Shown here: positions 44,514 to 51,431 of the stretch, in pieces
Position numbering within the stretch: the first letter of the stretch is position 1
Layout of the letters: the number at the start of each line of letters is the position of its first letter
DNA from: a virus
IMG/VR virus record: IMGVR_UViG_3300023184_000033
Coordinates: 1-64,000 of that record
Direction: 5' to 3' (one strand)
Length of the DNA stretch: 64,000 bases
The notes under the pieces: model-generated
Seen by the model: only the letters and a program-made list of their open reading frames with translations
What the model was told of the DNA's origin: nothing
Database searches by the model: none
Position numbers and translations under genes: made by a program

Positions 44514-44587
44514 TGGTTGCAGAGCCTGGAGTCGCACCAAGAACTGAGGATTATGAGTCCTCTGTGATACTGTTTCACCACCCTGCG
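44514..44587 (-). tRNA. tRNA-Met(CAU), initiator-like
   Basis: C1:A72 mismatch, CAT anticodon, encoded CCA. Confidence 0.8.
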
Positions 44588-44594
44588 ATATCAG

Positions 44595-44668
44595 TGGAGC
44601 GGGATGGGAGAATCGAACTCCCGACTTTAGCTTGGAAGGCTAAGGTAATACCATTTTACGAATCCCGC
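44595..44668 (-). tRNA. tRNA-Gly(UCC)
   Basis: cloverleaf, loop CTTCCAA, CCA. Confidence 0.9.
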
Positions 44669-44675
44669 AAAAAAC

Positions 44676-44740
44676 TGGAGCGGCCGCTACGATTCTCACG
44701 TAGACATTAGGTGGACCCCAATGTTGTTGAAAACGACCGC
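44676..44740 (-). ncRNA. D-armless tRNA-like RNA with Gly-type acceptor (GCGG...CCGC-UCCA)
   Basis: 7-bp acceptor stem, T-arm, one long hairpin, no D-arm. Confidence 0.6.
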
Positions 44741-44747
44741 ATAAACT

Positions 44748-44822
44748 TGGAGCGGGCAGAGAGAATCGAACTCTCAACTAAACCTTGGCAAGGTCTTGTG
44801 TTACCACTAGCACCATGCCCGC
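44748..44822 (-). tRNA. tRNA-Gly(GCC)
   Basis: cloverleaf, GCC anticodon, CCA. Confidence 0.9.
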
Positions 44823-44833
44823 ATCTAAATTAG

Positions 44834-44862
44834 ATTGTATCTTATATATGCTTGTTTGTCAA
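44834..44862 (-). promoter_or_regulatory. sigma70-type promoter TTGACA-17-TACAAT
   Basis: upstream of Gly/Gly/fMet tRNAs. Confidence 0.65.
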
Positions 44863-44880
44863 GCGTTTCCGTGGTATACT

Positions 44881-44955
44881 TGGTGGGCCAACTTGGAATT
44901 GAACCAAGACTCAACCGATTATGAGTCGGACGCTTTACCATTAAGCTATTGGCCC
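44881..44955 (-). tRNA. tRNA(CAU), probably Ile2
   Basis: GGGCC acceptor, CCGA-CUCAUAA-UCGG arm. Confidence 0.75.
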
Positions 44956-45136
44956 ATAAATTTAACGTTTAGAATTTTCTCTTTCTATTCGTTCAAATTC
45001 TGCATTTTCATTCTCAGAATCCTGAACTTGTTTTGGATCAGGTTTCCGAAAAATTGCATCGTAATTGTTTGCAAAAGTTTTCTGGTCCACACTAAATGGT
45101 CTTGGACTACTTCCTTTACCACCATCACTCATTTTG

Positions 45137-45385
45137 TTACTCTCCGTAAATAAAAACTATATCATCAATTGAGATGACATAACAATCGTTTAATGTTTTA
45201 GTTGCTGCATTCCAGTTTAAAAGAACTACGTCATCAACGGCAACTGCATCGACTTCAGAACCAATAGCAATTACTTTTGCTTTATCGGCTTCTTCTGAAC
45301 GTGTGAGAATAATTCCTCCAGAAGTGGTCTTATTATTCTCTAAACGTTCAACGATTACTTTTTTTCCTAATGGTTTTAAATTCAT
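45137..45385 (-). CDS. GroES-like co-chaperonin
   Basis: LKPLG.KVIV...TSGGIIL...VIAIG. Confidence 0.85.
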   Translation of the reverse strand: MNLKPLGKKVIVERLENNKTTSGGIILTRSEEADKAKVIAIGSEVDAVAVDDVVLLNWNAATKTLNDCYVISIDDIVFIYGE

Positions 45386-45421
45386 AATATCCTCAAAATG
45401 TTTATATGTCTTTTATATAGT

Positions 45422-45508
45422 TGGTGCGACTGGCCGGAATCGAACCGGCATGCCCTTGCGAGCGAGAGATTTTAAGTCTCTTGTGTCTACCTATTTCACC
45501 ACAGTCGC
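45422..45508 (-). tRNA. tRNA-Leu(UAA)
   Basis: long variable arm, loop CTTAAAA. Confidence 0.9.
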
Positions 45509-45510
45509 TT

Positions 45511-46074
45511 CTACATTGTTGGTCCGTTGCCGTTCCTAAATCCAACTTCACCGCCTTCAGCGGTAATTCTTTTAATAACATCTTCAAAAAGAATTGGTGT
45601 AAAATCTGTTTGTTCAACACAAACACAATGATATCTAGTATCAATTTCATTGCCATTCATTACACGACCTGTATGCAGGTGTCCGTGGATGTTAACTCCA
45701 AATCGGCCAAGACTATCACTATGAATAGGAATATGTGAAAGAATCATTCCGTTCATTACATGATAAGCACGTAGTTCACGAAAATATTTCCGATATTCAT
45801 CATCACGAAAAATGTCATGGTTGCCTCGAATGAGAACTTTATCACCGTTAAGTCTACTCATAATAGGAAGAGCTTTGCGGTTGATAACTACATCACCAAG
45901 ATGATATACTTTATCGTTTGGCCGAACAGTTTCGTTCCAACGTTTAACCATTTCTTCATCCATTTCATCTGGATTGGTCCATGGTCTAATCTTTTCGTTT
46001 GTTTTAGAGTCGGTGAATCTACATACTCCAGCATGACCAAAGTGTGTGTCACTTACAAGAAATACTGCTGGCAT
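45511..46074 (-). CDS. calcineurin-like metallophosphoesterase
   Basis: SDTHFGH, LGD, GNHD, HGHLH. Confidence 0.9.
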   Translation of the reverse strand: MPAVFLVSDTHFGHAGVCRFTDSKTNEKIRPWTNPDEMDEEMVKRWNETVRPNDKVYHLGDVVINRKALPIMSRLNGDKVLIRGNHDIFRDDEYRKYFRELRAYHVMNGMILSHIPIHSDSLGRFGVNIHGHLHTGRVMNGNEIDTRYHCVCVEQTDFTPILFEDVIKRITAEGGEVGFRNGNGPTM

Positions 46075-46090
46075 ATAAAATCCTTTAAAA

Positions 46091-46165
46091 TGGTCCGGCC
46101 TACAGGAATCGAACCCATATTCACGGTGTAGAAGACCGCTGTATTATCCATTATACTAAGGCCGG
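46091..46165 (-). tRNA. tRNA-Arg(UCU)
   Basis: loop CTTCTAC, CCA. Confidence 0.85.
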
Positions 46166-46170
46166 TTGTT

Positions 46171-46247
46171 TGGTGCCCCAGAGGAGACTCGAACTCCTAA
46201 AATCTTGCTTCTAAGGCAAGCACGTATACCAATTCCGTCACCGGGGC
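46171..46247 (-). tRNA. tRNA-Leu(UAG), short variable loop
   Basis: loop CTTAGAA, CCA. Confidence 0.85.
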
Positions 46248-46446
46248 AATTTGGAATAAATTGTAATTATCTTGTAATTTTTCTTATCAATAATATTAAA
46301 TAATATTTTAATCCACGAAAAGGAAAAAAATCAAAGTTCATATTTGGCCACATTTCAATATGACCAACTTCATTTGGTATTCCACCATATGCTTTGTCTA
46401 GTGTTTCTTTAGTAGTATTTTTCATTTCTTAATCTTTCAATAATAT

Positions 46447-46525
46447 TGGTACCCTCGCTCAGATTCGAACTGAGAGAACTCTTCTTTTTGAGAGAAGCGA
46501 CTTTACCAGATTTGTCCACGGGGGC
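46447..46525 (-). tRNA. tRNA-Leu(CAA), short variable loop
   Basis: loop CTCAAAA, CCA. Confidence 0.85.
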
Positions 46526-46529
46526 AATT

Positions 46530-46605
46530 TGGTGCAACCTAGAGGAATCGAACCTCTTTCAATGGCTCTTCAGACCACCGCTATGACCACATCAGCTAAG
46601 GTTGC
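46530..46605 (-). tRNA. tRNA-Phe(GAA)
   Basis: loop CTGAAGA, CCA. Confidence 0.85.
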
Positions 46606-46612
46606 ATATTCA

Positions 46613-46686
46613 TGGTACCTCGTTGGAGAATCGAACTCCCGTATGCACCGTGTAAGGATGCCGTTCTACCATTAAACTACCGAGGC
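46613..46686 (-). tRNA. tRNA-Val(UAC)
   Basis: loop CTTACAC, CCA. Confidence 0.85.
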
Positions 46687-46696
46687 AAATTTACTT

Positions 46697-46770
46697 TGGG
46701 GTGACTAATGGGAGTTGAACCCATACGATCAGAATCACAATCTGAGATGCTACCGCTACATCATAGTCAC
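46697..46770 (-). tRNA. tRNA-His(GUG)
   Basis: GTG anticodon, C73, CCA. Confidence 0.8.
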
Positions 46771-46799
46771 ACCAAAGTAAACTTAATTACTTTGGGATT

Positions 46800-47297
46800 T
46801 TAAACTCCTACCAACTCTTGTTCAGCAAGAATACGTTTCAATCTATCTGCACAGAACGAAGCTGCAGGTGCATCTGGTTTAACCATTGGTGTCACATTAC
46901 ATGTACCTTTGATATAACCAATTGCTTGTTGTACAACACAAGAACTTCCGTGTTCTTCTGACTTGTTAAGGTCTAGATGAACTTCTACATGAAAGTCTTC
47001 TAATGTTTCTGCAAGAGATTGGAATAATTCTGAAACTTTATAAACTTCATTCATAAGCCTCATTGCAGGTTTACTTTTCTTATGGTCATAATCTAATTCA
47101 CGGTCAACAAAACCGAAAATCTTACAACCATGGCGGCCATCAATATGAACAACAACAGCTAAAGCATAGTCGGCATACCACACACCATCCACTCTAACTC
47201 TTTCTGAGTCAGCACCAAGATACACTTTAGTATCTGGTCCTTGATTAGCGAGAAATGACCTAACTTCTTCTATATCGAACTTTCTCATATTGACCAC
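46800..47297 (-). CDS. YkuK/DUF458 RNase H-like protein
   Basis: LGADS, RL..E, EVHLD, KPDA.AAS..AD. Confidence 0.8.
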   Translation of the reverse strand: MVNMRKFDIEEVRSFLANQGPDTKVYLGADSERVRVDGVWYADYALAVVVHIDGRHGCKIFGFVDRELDYDHKKSKPAMRLMNEVYKVSELFQSLAETLEDFHVEVHLDLNKSEEHGSSCVVQQAIGYIKGTCNVTPMVKPDAPAASFCADRLKRILAEQELVGV

Positions 47298-47311
47298 CTT
47301 TTTTTAAAACT

Positions 47312-47385
47312 TGGCATCCCGCTAGGGACTCGAACCCCAACCAACGGTTTTGGAGACCGCTATGCTGCCATTACACCAGCGAGAT
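47312..47385 (-). tRNA. tRNA-Trp(CCA)
   Basis: loop CTCCAAA, CCA. Confidence 0.85.
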
Positions 47386-47391
47386 ATATAT

Positions 47392-47465
47392 TGGTTCTCT
47401 GTAGAAGAATCGAACTTCTGTCTATCGGTTATCAGCCGATTGCTCTACCATTGAGCTAACGGAGA
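47392..47465 (-). tRNA. tRNA-Ile(GAU)
   Basis: loop CTGATAA, CCA. Confidence 0.85.
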
Positions 47466-47468
47466 AAA

Positions 47469-47733
47469 ATGCTCTGCGAACCTCGGCGGTAATTGTAGTG
47501 CATCAGCTCTTCTCCTTTGTATCAGAGTCACATCTCACGCACCTTCCACCCGCTTCCCGACAGGTTCCGTTCTCGTATTGCCAACGCCAGTTCGGTTTAA
47601 CTGCTACATTTGACTGTAGGGACAGATTCTTTCACCAATGTTACTAAAGGTGAACCCTTGTCCGAACCACCCGTGATTAATTATTTCACTTCTCATCCTG
47701 CGGGTCACAGTAGCCACTATCACATGGCACGGT
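47469..47733 (-). ncRNA. unidentified ~265-nt multi-stem structured RNA
   Basis: GC-rich, ORF-free, many nested complementary segments between two tRNAs. Confidence 0.6.
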
Positions 47734-47734
47734 C

Positions 47735-47810
47735 TGGAGGGTCATAGAGGACTCAAACCCCTAACTCAAACTTCGTAGGATTGTGTGATATTCAGTTTCA
47801 CCAACGACCC
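47735..47810 (-). tRNA. tRNA-Arg(ACG), slightly degenerate
   Basis: loop CTACGAA; T-loop TTT instead of TTC. Confidence 0.7.
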
Positions 47811-48215
47811 AAATAATTTTCCTGCATGATGTTTTCTGTGACAATTTGCACACAAACAAGCACACTTATTAATTTCTTCAACAATTTGTTTTTTACTTGC
47901 TTCCGATTTATTAGAGATATTAAAATCTTTTTCATTACTGTTCATATGATGAAAATCTAAACAAGAAGTTTCAGACTCACCACATATACAACAACTTAAT
48001 GTTTCTTTTAATTTAAAAAACCATTCTTTATTTTCTTTTTTATATTTTTTTGCTCTTGTTAAATTTGTTGAATGGTGTTTGTAATAAGATTCTTTACTTT
48101 TTACCTTACGACATTCATCACAAAATGTTACTCTTTTTCCTTTTTCCTTGTTTTTAAAGGCAAACTTCTCTATTGGAAATTCTACCTCACAACAATTACA
48201 TTTTTTCTTTTCCAT
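47766..48215 (-). CDS. HNH endonuclease with zinc-finger N-terminus
   Basis: CNCC..CDEC; CCICG...LDFHH...LCANCHRKHH. Confidence 0.85.
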   Translation of the reverse strand: MEKKKCNCCEVEFPIEKFAFKNKEKGKRVTFCDECRKVKSKESYYKHHSTNLTRAKKYKKENKEWFFKLKETLSCCICGESETSCLDFHHMNSNEKDFNISNKSEASKKQIVEEINKCACLCANCHRKHHAGKLFGSLVKLNITQSYEV

Positions 48216-48236
48216 ATATTCTCCTAGATATAAACT

Positions 48237-48244
48237 TATTTATA
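48237..48244 (-). promoter_or_regulatory. T4-type late promoter TATAAATA for the HNH gene
   Basis: exact consensus upstream of AGGAG RBS. Confidence 0.7.
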
Positions 48245-48262
48245 AAGTTCGTATCTTTGATA

Positions 48263-48338
48263 TGGTAGTGACGGAGGGAACCGAGCCCCCAACCTTTTCC
48301 GTATGAAGGAACTGCTCTGCCGGTTGAGCTACGTCACT
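48263..48338 (-). tRNA. tRNA-Met(CAU), elongator-like
   Basis: loop TTCATAC; atypical T-loop. Confidence 0.75.
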
Positions 48339-48363
48339 ATAATCGACTATAATCGACTATAAT

Positions 48364-48437
48364 TGGTGGAGGATGGGAGAATCGAACTCCCGTAAACAGC
48401 TTGCAAAGCTGCCGTAATCCCATTATACTAATCCCCC
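48364..48437 (-). tRNA. tRNA-Ala(UGC)
   Basis: G3:U70, TGC anticodon. Confidence 0.9.
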
Positions 48438-48443
48438 ATAACT

Positions 48444-48517
48444 TGGTCTCGGTAGAAGGAATCGAACCTTCGTCACGTGGTCCCAAACCACGAATTCTGC
48501 CATTAAACTACACCGAG
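48444..48517 (-). tRNA. tRNA-Pro(UGG)
   Basis: loop TTTGGGA. Confidence 0.9.
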
Positions 48518-48523
48518 AAAAAC

Positions 48524-48594
48524 TGGCTCCAGTGGAAGGAATCGAACCTTCATTGGTTGTATACGGACCATGTTACCATTACATTACAACTGGA
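48524..48594 (-). ncRNA. tRNA-like RNA with aberrant anticodon arm
   Basis: acceptor TCCAGT/ACTGGA-GCCA, canonical T-arm, no 5-bp/7-nt anticodon arm. Confidence 0.55.
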
Positions 48595-48601
48595 ATAAAC
48601 T

Positions 48602-48676
48602 TGGTGCCCCAGGAGAGAATCGAACTCCCACACCCGGATTACAAAACCGGACCTCTACCACTAAGGATACAAGGGC
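48602..48676 (-). tRNA. tRNA-Thr(UGU)
   Basis: loop TTTGTAA. Confidence 0.9.
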
Positions 48677-48681
48677 TATAT

Positions 48682-48760
48682 TGGCTCCGCATTAGAGAAT
48701 CGAACTCTACTAACCAGTGATTAACAGTCACGCCCATGCACCTTGCTCGGGTTCTGCGGA
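48682..48760 (-). tRNA. tRNA-Asn(GUU)
   Basis: loop CTGTTAA. Confidence 0.85.
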
Positions 48761-48768
48761 ATAAAACT

Positions 48769-48843
48769 TGGCGGTTCTAAGGGGTAACGATCCCCTTCTT
48801 CAAGCGTGACAGGCTTGTGTGCGTCCATGAACACTTTAGAACC
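48769..48843 (-). tRNA. tRNA-Asp(GUC)
   Basis: loop CTGTCAC. Confidence 0.85.
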
Positions 48844-48849
48844 TAAATT

Positions 48850-48933
48850 TGGTGGATGCGGTTGGATTCGAACCAACGTGTTGTTACAACCGGATTTACA
48901 GTCCGGCACCTTCGGCCTCTCGGTCACACATCC
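48850..48933 (-). tRNA. tRNA-Tyr(GUA)
   Basis: loop CTGTAAA, long variable arm. Confidence 0.9.
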
Positions 48934-48939
48934 AATTTT

Positions 48940-49013
48940 TGGTAGGGGCACAGAGAATTGAACTCTGGTTAATAGGTTAAAAGCCTACTACTTTACCACT
49001 AAGTTATACCCCC
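48940..49013 (-). tRNA. tRNA-Lys(UUU)
   Basis: loop CTTTTAA. Confidence 0.9.
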
Positions 49014-49138
49014 ATCATTTGTTTTGCTGACGCACTATTTGCTATGCTCAACGGATTCATTTGCAAATTTACCGTTTCTGTACATAGTTACTTAGAGTTG
49101 ACGTTTACTCAATGGCTTACATCAACAAAACAAATGAT
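49014..49138 (-). ncRNA. inverted-repeat-closed structured RNA
   Basis: 19-bp terminal stem whose two mismatches are G:U only on the minus strand. Confidence 0.55.
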
Positions 49139-49139
49139 A

Positions 49140-49353
49140 CCATATTAAAATACATTAGGATGCGATTGTCGTTCCAGAACTTCATCTGGCTTCTCACGGC
49201 TTCGTCTGCCGATAAGACAATCTACACATTACGATTCAACTAATTCCAGCGCAGTCGGATTGCTTCATGTAACTTATAAGGTTCACAGCGGCCTGTGATA
49301 CGTGCCAAATAAGTCACCTACTGGAGTTGGTAACCTAATGTATTTTAATATGG
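49140..49353 (-). ncRNA. inverted-repeat-closed structured RNA starting at tRNA-Glu CCA
   Basis: perfect 20-bp IR CCATATTAAAATACATTAGG. Confidence 0.6.
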
Positions 49354-49426
49354 CGTCCCGTAGGGGATTCGAACCCCTGTGAATAGCGTGAAAGGCTACT
49401 ATCCTAGGCCTCTAGATGAACGGGAC
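49351..49426 (-). tRNA. tRNA-Glu(UUC)
   Basis: loop CTTTCAC. Confidence 0.9.
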
Positions 49427-49445
49427 AATATTAAATACAATCTAA

Positions 49446-49458
49446 TTTTTAAAGAACA
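49446..49458 (-). promoter_or_regulatory. rrn-type boxA-like antitermination site TGTTCTTTAAAAA
   Basis: close match to boxA TGCTCTTTAACAA; duplicated at 50557-50569. Confidence 0.65.
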
Positions 49459-49604
49459 TTTGCTAGTAATTTTTCAACTAGCGGCCTCGGGGATTCGATC
49501 CCTCTGCATTGCAATCAAGCACCAATGTTCCTCATTGGTTTTTGTGTTACCTGTGTTCCTCACAGGACTTGGTTGGATCAACTAATTTCTCAATCGATAC
49601 ACGT

Positions 49605-49632
49605 ATTATATACGAACCGGTTGGTTTGTCAA
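49605..49632 (-). promoter_or_regulatory. sigma70-type promoter TTGACA-16-TATAAT
   Basis: consensus boxes with tandem GTTGT-N6-ACAAC palindromes upstream. Confidence 0.75.
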
Positions 49633-49679
49633 CCACTTTCTTGTTGTATTTTTACAACGTTGTTTTTATACAACATATA

Positions 49680-49757
49680 TGGAGGTGCAGGTGAGATTTG
49701 AACTCACGATTTTACAGTTTTGCAGGCTGTTGCCTTGGACCGCTCGGCCACTGCACC
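49680..49757 (-). tRNA. tRNA-Cys(GCA)
   Basis: loop CTGCAAA, U73. Confidence 0.9.
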
Positions 49758-49764
49758 ATATTTT

Positions 49765-49852
49765 TGGCAGAGAGTATGAGATTCGAACTCATGCACCGCT
49801 TTCGCAATGACGGTTTAGCAAACCGCTCCTTTAACCACTCAGGCAACTCTCT
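49765..49852 (-). tRNA. tRNA-Ser(GCU)
   Basis: long variable arm, loop TTGCTAA. Confidence 0.9.
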
Positions 49853-49857
49853 AAACT

Positions 49858-50226
49858 TTATCCTTCTTTATTCAATGAAACACTTTCGGAATAGTAGCCG
49901 TTAGACTCACCATACCAACGAATGTCAACATAACCTTTGATAGTTGCTAGCTTGTAGAATGTCCATGTGAACGAATCTTGGTATTCTGATACTTCAGCAC
50001 CTTCTGGATTTTCATTGCTTGAAGATTCTTCAGCAACAAGCAATGGAACACCAATCAAGTCTTGAACATCACCAACAACGGACTCAACCGAAACAGATTC
50101 GCAACAATCTTGGTAATGGTACATGTTGTACACTTCACCATCAACAGTAACAAACTTAATGTTGTCACTGCCAACATCAACTTCTTTTAAAACTTTTCCT
50201 AGCAGAGATTCAAAATTTACGTACAT
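49858..50226 (-). CDS. conserved phage protein (HYQDCCESV...WYGESNGYYSE)
   Basis: AAGGA RBS before MYVNF. Confidence 0.75.
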   Translation of the reverse strand: MYVNFESLLGKVLKEVDVGSDNIKFVTVDGEVYNMYHYQDCCESVSVESVVGDVQDLIGVPLLVAEESSSNENPEGAEVSEYQDSFTWTFYKLATIKGYVDIRWYGESNGYYSESVSLNKEG

Positions 50227-50245
50227 ATAATATCCTTTATAAAAA

Positions 50246-50337
50246 TGGCGGAAGACAGAGGAGTCGAACCCCATCCCATTTCTGAGAACCTGGTTTTCAA
50301 GGCCAGTCGCAGGACCATCCCCGCTGCATTATCTTCC
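50246..50337 (-). tRNA. tRNA-Ser(UGA)
   Basis: long variable arm, loop CTTGAAA. Confidence 0.85.
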
Positions 50338-50339
50338 GT

Positions 50340-50470
50340 TGCCATATAGAAACTCTCTGTAGGATTTGCACCTAATTGTAACCTTATCTTCCTTGCAGGT
50401 TCTTGTATTGGTCGACTTTTACAAGTTTACTGTTTTCAAGTGTAGTTACACAGAGAGTTTTTATATGGCA
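50340..50470 (-). ncRNA. inverted-repeat-closed RNA with a T-arm-like hairpin, starting at tRNA-Gln CCA
   Basis: 21-bp IR with one mismatch; TAGG-TGCAAAT-CCTA. Confidence 0.6.
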
Positions 50471-50539
50471 GGGGATACAAGAATCGAACTTGTACTAACA
50501 GATTCAAAGTCTGCTGTGCTACCACTACACAAATCCCCA
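50466..50539 (-). tRNA. tRNA-Gln(UUG)
   Basis: loop CTTTGAA. Confidence 0.9.
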
Positions 50540-50632: not shown

Positions 50633-50667
50633 AAACAAAAAACCCTTAGATGTTTAGTCTAAGGGTC
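50633..50667 (-). terminator. attenuator terminator
   Basis: GACCCTTAGA-CTAAACA-TCTAAGGGTT then TTTTGTTT. Confidence 0.8.
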
Positions 50668-50694
50668 TTGTGTTTAGAATCTTTTTAGAACTTT

Positions 50695-50805
50695 TTAGTT
50701 CATCCTCTCCACACAAAACCCGGCTGGCCATGGCATATCGGCACAATTAATACTTGTGCGATACTCTGACTGTAACGTAAAGGGTTTATGGGATATGAGA
50801 GACAC
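50695..50805 (-). CDS. putative attenuation leader peptide containing all 20 amino acids (MSLISHKPFTLQSEYRTSINCADMPWPAGFCVERMN)
   Basis: GTG start after GAAAG; 36 codons; overlaps antiterminator strand. Confidence 0.7.
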   Translation of the reverse strand: MSLISHKPFTLQSEYRTSINCADMPWPAGFCVERMN

Positions 50806-50838
50806 TTTTTTCTTTCGATTAATTTAATTTATGTATGT

Positions 50839-50867
50839 ATTATATATGTATATATGAGGATTGGCAA
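50839..50867 (-). promoter_or_regulatory. sigma70-type promoter TTGCCA-17-TATAAT of the tRNA operon leader
   Basis: near-consensus boxes; palindrome at 50904-50919. Confidence 0.75.
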
Positions 50868-50921: not shown

Positions 50922-51431
50922 TTACGGGTACTCTTTCCATCCTAGAGGTTCAATTTCCAACACAGGTGCATCTATGTTGTAGATTTCTTGGAACACTTCC
51001 CACAGTTTTTCTTTAATAGCAAACTTTGCAAAAAGGCCTGTCTCCATGCCGTGTGCTTCAACTTCCCAAGGACACAACCAGTAGTCTTCACCGGTTTGTC
51101 TTTGTCCTTTCCAGCGAGTCAAAGATTCGTTTGTTTCTCCGTAAGCAAACTGTTTGATGTGTACCATTTCATGTGCAATGGTCTTTAGAATATCCTTTGC
51201 GTTCATAAGAGAGTACACTTCAATTTCAAATTCTCTTGGTTTGTTGCTTTCGTTGCAATCAACTACATGAGCATAACCCATAGCATCCATAGTGTCGTTG
51301 AATTTGATTTTAATTGTCAGATTTTCTGCCATTTTATCAGACAACAATTCCTTAGCGTAAAACATGGTGGCACGCTTCACATAGGGGCGAAATCGTTCTT
51401 TGTCTGGACAACCAACAATACTTAGTTTCAT
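50922..51431 (-). CDS. zincin-like metallopeptidase
   Basis: AHEMVHIKQ, PWEVEA. Confidence 0.75.
   Translation of the reverse strand: MKLSIVGCPDKERFRPYVKRATMFYAKELLSDKMAENLTIKIKFNDTMDAMGYAHVVDCNESNKPREFEIEVYSLMNAKDILKTIAHEMVHIKQFAYGETNESLTRWKGQRQTGEDYWLCPWEVEAHGMETGLFAKFAIKEKLWEVFQEIYNIDAPVLEIEPLGWKEYP

Follow-up and report, generated by a model that had tools for sequence, protein, structure and literature searches.

The window analysed here comprises the first 64,000 nucleotides (nt) of the IMG/VR virus record IMGVR_UViG_3300023184_000033, a 163.8-kb record of an uncultured T4-like phage for which no close relative was found in GenBank. It carries an array of tRNA genes, and the head of this array is occupied by a leader element, present once in the source genome, which is the subject of this study. 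In the direction of transcription, the element consists of a promoter (P1), a ribosome-binding stretch, a short open reading frame (ORF) that uses no codon twice among its first 26, two alternative helices around the end of the ORF and an intrinsic terminator; a second promoter (P2), a boxA-like element and tRNA-Gln follow (Table 1). An initial annotation, made from the sequence of the window, had described this region as a leader-peptide attenuator, and the promoter, start signal, ORF, competing helix, terminator, boxA and tRNA-Gln that it listed were all found where it had placed them. Absent from that account were the full length of the antiterminator helix, a pairing segment in codons 4–9 and the promoter P2.

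Table 1. Features of the leader element and of the tRNA array behind it, in window positions.
Feature	Position	Strand	Remarks
Promoter P1	50839..50867	–	TTGCCA, 17-nt spacer, TATAAT; 11/12 consensus
Ribosome-binding stretch GAAAGAA	50811..50817	–	purine-rich; 5–6 nt 5' of the GTG start
Leader ORF	50695..50805	–	36 codons + TAA; 20/20 amino acids
Segment 1 (codons 5–8, TCCCATAAACCC)	50782..50793	–	predicted anti-antiterminator; partner, segment 2
Central hairpin within the ORF	50737..50762	–	ATCGC...CGAT base, variable top; possible RNA polymerase pause hairpin
Segment 2, antiterminator 5' strand (codons 29–34; core GGGTTTTGTGT)	50704..50721	–
Segment 3, antiterminator 3' strand	50663..50680	–	RNAduplex pairs 50680-50664; the 11-bp helix adds 50663
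Intrinsic terminator (segments 3:4) + U-tract	50635..50669	–	stem 50669-50639; 12 pairs in scan
Promoter P2	50577..50605	–	TTGCCG, 17-nt spacer, TACAAT; 9/12 consensus; between terminator and boxA
boxA-like element TGTTCTTTAAAAA	50557..50569	–	sequence resemblance
tRNA-Gln(UUG), first array gene	50466..50539	–	ARAGORN
tRNA array, 25 genes	44514-50539	–, all on the same strand	ARAGORN
Internal promoters	49632-49605 and 44862-44834	–	serve distal tRNAs

A gene for a 169-amino-acid (169-aa) protein lies directly upstream of the leader, and 322 relatives of this gene were found in IMG/VR. Relatives of the leader were assembled by profile searches of the loci of these genes and by two pattern scans of IMG/VR. 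They comprise 24 distinct long leaders of 32–44 codons, which fall into four or five clades with peptide identity down to ~25%, and ~14 short leaders of 22–25 codons. Both forms share the promoter, the ORF, a G-run/U-rich strand at the end of the ORF, a complement of this strand that overlaps the terminator, and tRNA genes downstream; the ORF and the alternative pairing seen in the window are conserved ahead of the arrays of related phages. The loci of other 169-aa gene relatives show a plain promoter, or a small RNA of another kind, ahead of their tRNAs, and the device is therefore clade-specific rather than universal. When the window leader and its long-form and short-form relatives were used as queries, no leader homologue was found in GenBank phages and only tRNA-Gln was matched. 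A protein search with the 44-aa peptide of one relative returned two clusters only, because gene callers seldom call such ORFs.

The leader RNA folds more stably than its shuffled versions (z = –5.1). The helix that competes with the terminator had been drawn as 11 bp (50721-50711 with 50673-50663); these pairs are present, one of them U-G, but the predicted helix is longer (50721-50704 with 50680-50663) and has an energy of –17.2 kcal/mol, compared with –14.6 kcal/mol for the terminator. Segment 3 shares 50663/4-50669 with the folded terminator stem, including the GACCC arm that had been pointed out as common to both structures, and because of this overlap antiterminator and terminator are mutually exclusive. 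Across the family the antiterminator ranges from –13 to –19 kcal/mol and the terminator from –13 to –16 kcal/mol, with an overlap of 6 nt; in the short forms the antiterminator includes the stop codon. Both helices are supported by covariation. The terminator emerged as the RNAalifold consensus, with five of eight pairs changed on both sides. In a MAFFT alignment that was not fitted to any structure, the 10-pair core of the antiterminator was paired in 81.7% of cells, compared with 32–58% when the partner strand was slid, and none of 500 shuffles matched the observed pairing or covariation score. Cognate antiterminator strands paired at –14.8 kcal/mol, and strands taken from different clades at –10.3 kcal/mol. 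The proposal of mutually exclusive hairpins attached to a leader ORF was thus borne out in the relatives, where both helices are conserved and covary and the ORF behaves like a translated frame (see below).

Two further structures were considered. Segment 1, within the stretch of codons 4–9, was predicted to pair with segment 2 in every homologue, with energies of –8 to –19 kcal/mol. When folding was modelled without a ribosome, the nascent RNA favoured the antiterminator and the full-length RNA favoured the 1:2 helix together with the terminator. The basal stem of the central hairpin is retained in all long forms. Groups differ in the frame in which this stem is read, so that its conservation lies at the RNA level; the hairpin may act as an RNA polymerase pause hairpin. 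The distance from the stop codon to the terminator stem is 27–35 nt in every clade, even where the distance of the antiterminator strand from the stop varies. In a footprint model, a ribosome with its A site at codons 1–25 would leave the antiterminator intact and one at codons 26–36 would abolish it, which contradicts the earlier suggestion that stalling at any codon ahead of the stop would free the antiterminator.

We asked whether the ORF carries the marks of translation. No stop interrupts the frame in any of the 25 long copies tested or of the short copies read, while the other two frames held 0–5 stops, usually 1–5. In nucleotide alignments that were not codon-aware, all 16 indel events within the ORF were multiples of three, and indels in the spacer past the stop measured 1–7 nt. 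Every copy has a start signal. In one kind of copy a Shine-Dalgarno-like stretch (GGAG, AGGAA or GAAAGAA in relatives) stands 6–10 nt ahead of the start codon, which is GTG, ATG or TTG; in the other, an ATG lies 6 nt past the –10 hexamer. In copies of the latter kind the start codon is always ATG, which fits a leaderless mRNA. Codon positions 1, 2 and 3 vary near-equally; the peptide sequence is therefore weakly constrained, which argues against a dedicated micropeptide. From this pattern of evolution we infer that the ORF is translated.

The opposite view would be that the ORF is a chance frame within a structured leader RNA that senses its signal directly, as a riboswitch, a T-box-like tRNA binder or a protein-bound leader. 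The folding z-score given above and the conserved central hairpin would suit such an RNA. However, the Rfam models of leaders (Trp_leader, His_leader, Leu_leader, Thr_leader, Phe_leader and others), T-boxes and riboswitches gave no match even at E up to 1, the sole match of the leader at that limit being a chance-level one of its terminator to psRNA14. Maintenance of the frame in ~40 diverged copies, the restriction of ORF indels to multiples of three, the start signal in every copy and the constant placement of the stop codon ahead of the terminator also speak against a chance frame, and we regard this explanation as highly improbable.

The amino-acid content of the leader was compared with chance expectation. 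For a 36-codon ORF, the probability of containing all 20 amino acids was ~0.002 with the protein composition of this phage and 0.003–0.01 in shuffles of the ORF's own nucleotides, and the probability that 25 random codons are all distinct was ~1e-4. A single leader is therefore only modestly improbable, and the weight of the observation comes from its conservation in relatives. Among the 24 long leaders, 19 contain all 20 amino acids and the other five contain 19, whereas in simulated neutral drift from a complete leader the full set survived in only 1–4% of runs (40–60% divergence). Of 25 amino-acid kinds lost at their ancestral sites, 24 were regained at another position of that peptide (12 expected, P ~ 1e-8), and the 11 of a conservative subset free of alignment doubts were all regained (P = 2.5e-4). 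The only His illustrates this behaviour: it moved from codon 6 to codon 16 in one relative (L079) and to codon 15 in another (L067), in each case displacing an Arg or a Tyr that reappears at a new site, and in a further relative found by protein search (P0001) the sole His was relocated likewise. Among the codons where a stall could signal, diversity was 2–3 standard deviations above chance in group 1. The initial annotation had also held that the leader samples separate isoacceptors. This part of its account is weakly supported: synonymous-codon diversity beyond that expected from amino-acid diversity lay above the simulated mean in all 13 representatives, but was individually significant in only five.

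The make-up of the leader also follows that of the array behind it. The five long-leader phages checked have 24–28 tRNAs, and the four short-leader phages checked have 5–13 by Rfam (the genome with six tRNAs is complete, the others are fragments). The array behind the leader of the complete genome (G006) serves Trp, Tyr, Thr, Gly, Asn and Met, and 11 of the 18 leader codons ahead of segment 2 specify five of these amino acids (P = 4.5e-4). In another relative (L025), all 13 central residues are among the amino acids that its array serves. Leaders that contain Ala or Pro mostly stand before arrays with the corresponding tRNA-Ala or tRNA-Pro, and permutation of the arrays among ten short leaders gave P = 0.022. 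By these comparisons, the full leader that precedes a near-complete array would be the limiting case of a general rule by which the leader mirrors the array. In its strongest form, the leader would be a roster of the array's tRNAs under trp-style attenuation, in which selection keeps one codon per array-served amino acid; in a phage with the full set it would become a 20-amino-acid test gene, serving as a homeostat or alarm for the entire decoding capacity of the infected cell. We advance this stronger form tentatively, at slightly below even odds.

Next we considered how the leader is joined to the tRNA genes. A promoter at the position of P1 is retained in relatives, as is a boxA-like element just ahead of the first tRNA. 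In 23 of the 24 long forms tRNA-Gln(ttg) begins 34–129 nt past the leader; the exception is L067, in which an inserted ORF stands between the leader terminator and tRNA-Gln. P2 is a sigma70-type promoter with the consensus TTGACA-17-TATAAT in most long-form relatives; L041, L048 and L045 lack it, as does every short form. The first tRNA lies 4–9 nt past the U-tract in 12 of 13 short forms and 34 nt past it in L045, with no promoter between, and 4–129 nt past it across the short forms and group 1b, which lacks P2. In the short forms and L045, arrays without an intervening promoter can be made only by read-through, and the terminator must therefore be conditional.

These arrangements bear on a second alternative, in which the stretch from P1 through the ORF to the terminator is a small gene in its own right, for a micropeptide or a ~190-nt small RNA with its own role, the array being driven by P2 and the terminator merely insulating the two units. 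The conservation of P2 in most long forms and the invariant 16-residue peptide core of group 2 agree with it, and a trans-acting RNA and peptide derived from an attenuator, rnTrpL and peTrpL, are known (PMC7298713, PMC7968998). Yet an insulating terminator has no need of an antiterminator that overlaps it and covaries with it, and P2 is missing in the short forms and group 1b, where the first tRNA lies 4–129 nt past the U-tract. The peptide is weakly constrained, its invariant core coincides with the conserved RNA hairpin, and no protein-family or Rfam-family match was found. We therefore consider a self-contained small gene quite unlikely.

The inserted ORF of L067 (L067:4822-5190, plus strand) encodes a Cys/His-rich protein of 122 aa. 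Its Cys/His pattern resembles by eye that of an HNH endonuclease; Pfam gave no match above threshold. The ORF may represent a mobile-element insertion into the control region.

Given the conserved anatomy, the covarying helices, the frame-preserving evolution with upkeep of amino-acid kinds and the match between leader and array, we propose, with a probability of roughly 0.55, that the element is a ribosome-dependent transcription attenuator that heads the phage tRNA array and gauges decoding speed for the tRNAs that the array supplies. The P1 transcript would begin with 111 nt of translated 36-codon leader, and the part of it nearest the stop codon, segment 2, has segment 3 as its pairing partner, a strand that also contributes to the 5' arm of the terminator. 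If a ribosome occupied the last ~10 codons or the stop when the terminator is synthesised, segment 2 would be covered or otherwise kept from reaching segment 3, so that the terminator would form and transcription would end ahead of boxA and the tRNA genes. If the ribosome lagged within codons 1–25, the antiterminator would form first and transcription would continue into the tRNA genes. Ample decoding capacity would in this way shut down tRNA synthesis. Because the leader, like the near-complete tRNA set behind it, leaves out hardly any amino acid, synthesis would rise when almost any charged tRNA runs short or when decoding is slow in general; and because its codons cover the amino acids served by the array, the arrangement would amount to negative feedback on decoding capacity. 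Cleavage of host tRNAs by anticodon nucleases (PrrC, VapC, PARIS) is a possible trigger, although a speculative one.

A number of observations weigh against this proposal or narrow it. P2, lying between the terminator and boxA/tRNA-Gln, can bypass the switch, and its location means that the switch in the window would govern only transcripts started at P1. The two internal promoters, to which the initial annotation had pointed as a possible bypass, both exist and serve the distal tRNAs. Covariation of the 1:2 helix is weak, with cognate strands at –11.9 and non-cognate strands at –10.7 kcal/mol and no clear signal; this helix is accordingly treated as predicted only, and the outcome in the absence of any translation would depend on kinetics. 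Gly and Val are confined to segment 2 and Trp lies three codons before it, so that part of the 20/20 count comes free from the RNA strand, and the model suggests that these three amino acids are probably not sensed. Across the family, 15–18 amino acids are placed so that they could signal, and ~17 of 20 are so placed in the window; a make-up that follows the array tRNAs fits a sensor of the tRNAs that the array supplies. The all-amino-acid content that the initial annotation had emphasised recurs, with compensatory regain, in the long leaders, but short leaders hold 14–18 kinds and are no more diverse than chance. Among the codons able to signal, diversity in group 2b is only ~1.3 standard deviations above chance. 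When every residue found also in some other clade was fixed, a very conservative null that leaves too few free positions to be informative, completeness was not individually significant for most sequences. Finally, the N-terminal Lys, Ile and Phe codons of short leaders have no matching tRNA in the array.

Several of these points would also suit a ribosome-dependent attenuator that works as a generic gauge of translation, responding to whether initiation and elongation occur at all (for example in timing after host shut-off, or under stress from a block of translation) and giving the individual amino acids no specific meaning; the near-complete set would then be a by-product of RNA structure and inheritance. 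Segments 1 and 2 and the central hairpin do dictate the Lys-Pro, Glu-Tyr-Arg-Thr and Gly-Phe-Cys-Val codons. The weak significance of completeness under the most conservative null, the location of Gly, Val and Trp outside sensing positions and the chance-level diversity of the short leaders point in the same direction, and antibiotic-responsive leaders of the vmlR type as well as whiB7 answer general translation stress. What a generic gauge leaves unexplained is the loss and regain of singleton amino acids (24/25, and 11/11 in the conservative subset), together with the His move in P0001, and the tracking of the local tRNA set by leader composition. We consider it somewhat unlikely and retain the attenuator that gauges decoding speed for the array-supplied tRNAs as our preferred reading.

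Full-text literature searches found no publication that describes control of tRNA genes, or of phage tRNA arrays, by leader-peptide attenuation. Apart from those that are defined experimentally, the defining features of a leader-peptide attenuator can largely be read from the sequence: a short ORF with a start signal right after the promoter in every copy, a terminator between the ORF and the tRNA genes, an exclusive antiterminator whose 5' strand consists of the last codons with or without the stop, and regulatory codons that match, if imperfectly, the product of the regulated genes. An anti-antiterminator (1:2) helix overlapped by the translated region is predicted in every copy, with cognate and non-cognate energies that lie close together. 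The attenuators of amino-acid operons (trpL, hisL, leuL, thrL, pheL and ilvL) and of pheST with its pheM leader likewise have a promoter-proximal short ORF followed by overlapping 1:2, 2:3 and 3:4 hairpins, the first of them predicted in the phage, and an intrinsic terminator, and here too ribosome position would be expected to choose between the hairpins. That a gene of the translation apparatus can be attenuator-controlled is known from pheST. Unlike these systems, the phage leader has no tandem regulatory codons and is either maximally diverse or mirrors the tRNAs of its own array; the switch would act on phage tRNA genes; many phage copies are apparently leaderless mRNAs; segment 2 lies inside the ORF and not past the stop codon; and there is no sequence or Rfam match to any of them.

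The closest published analogue is the upstream ORF (uORF) of mycobacterial whiB7, a long and diverse reading frame that is likewise followed by an antiterminator and a terminator. In M. smegmatis this uORF contains all amino acids except Cys; its make-up sets the starvations to which it reacts, which include those for many amino acids, and it also responds to general translation stress (PMC10274678). It differs in that it controls a bacterial transcription factor, is enriched in Ala with widely varying amino-acid content, and is not linked to tRNA genes; selection for completeness is not reported there. In vmlR, bmrB-bmrCD and msrD/mef, stalling in a leader ORF switches a terminator off (PMC9226507, PMC4335068). 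Like the proposed phage switch, these are sensors of translation trouble, but stalling in them requires a drug together with the nascent peptide, and their targets are resistance factors. T-boxes follow a similar logic, low tRNA charging leading to antitermination and more of a translation component; they differ in binding tRNA directly and having no ORF, and none was detected here. The order of tandem P1 and P2 promoters and then the boxA-like TGTTCTTTAAAAA just ahead of stable-RNA genes recalls the control region of rrn operons, in which, unlike here, no leader ORF or attenuator separates the two promoters. In sequence the phage element resembles the rrn boxA TGCTCTTTAACAA, a binding site of NusB/NusE, and it may be a site of the same kind.

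Why phages carry tRNA genes, and how these are used, is a long-standing question, for which codon-usage matching, decay of host tRNAs and escape from tRNA-cutting defences are the explanations on offer. If the proposal holds, phage tRNA output would be conditional and not constitutive, coupled to the decoding speed of ribosomes by a sensor tuned to the tRNAs of the array. Leader-peptide attenuation, known from amino-acid, synthetase and stress genes, would gain tRNA genes as a further class of target and viruses as a further setting, and the long leaders would show in nature a minimal ORF in which all 20 amino acids are maintained. A leader construct of ~330 nt could act as a compact general sensor of decoding capacity.

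Some other features of the array and of neighbouring loci were observed. A second promoter unit within the array (window 49427-49632, minus strand) has a promoter matching the consensus at 12 of 12 positions and a structured leader of ~170 nt with a T-arm-like GGGATCGAATCCCC hairpin, and a second copy of the boxA block within this unit precedes tRNA-Glu. It was considered as a second switch (49632-49433) and rejected, as its structured leader lacks the ORF-plus-terminator arrangement. Rfam gave two tRNA-like matches beyond the 25 tRNAs of ARAGORN, both on the minus strand. The first (50250-50337) reads as a tRNA-Ser(UGA) with a long variable arm and overlaps the start of an annotated DUF7448 ORF (49858-50274). 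The second (48528-48593) has a normal acceptor stem and T arm, and its anticodon loop is not canonically readable.

At five of the loci without the device (L003, L004, L018, L010 and L009), the first 100–330 nt past the homologue of the 169-aa gene hold a promoter and a ~75-nt RNA instead of the leader. The ends of this RNA pair like an acceptor stem and it has a terminal CCA (GCGGTG...CACCGCTCCA); it may be a non-canonical tRNA-like RNA. At some of these loci a small basic ORF comes next, followed by tRNA-Thr or tRNA-Gly. The Stenotrophomonas phage DLP_6 was examined as a possible carrier of the device and could not be confirmed as one: its main array, with 37 tRNA matches, follows a 56-aa ORF at which no terminator could be seen. 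Just upstream of this array (L251:545-760; KU682439.2, ~102840-103060) there is a tRNA-like 3' end (…GGTTCGATTCCCGCC…CCA), followed by a frame ending ANDDSFAPMAIAA that resembles the tag of transfer-messenger RNA (tmRNA) and is unannotated in the record. The 169-aa gene itself (window 50922-51431, minus strand) adjoins tRNA arrays in most of its 322 IMG/VR relatives; an HEMVH motif and a sub-threshold SprT-like Pfam match suggest that its product is a zinc metalloprotease.

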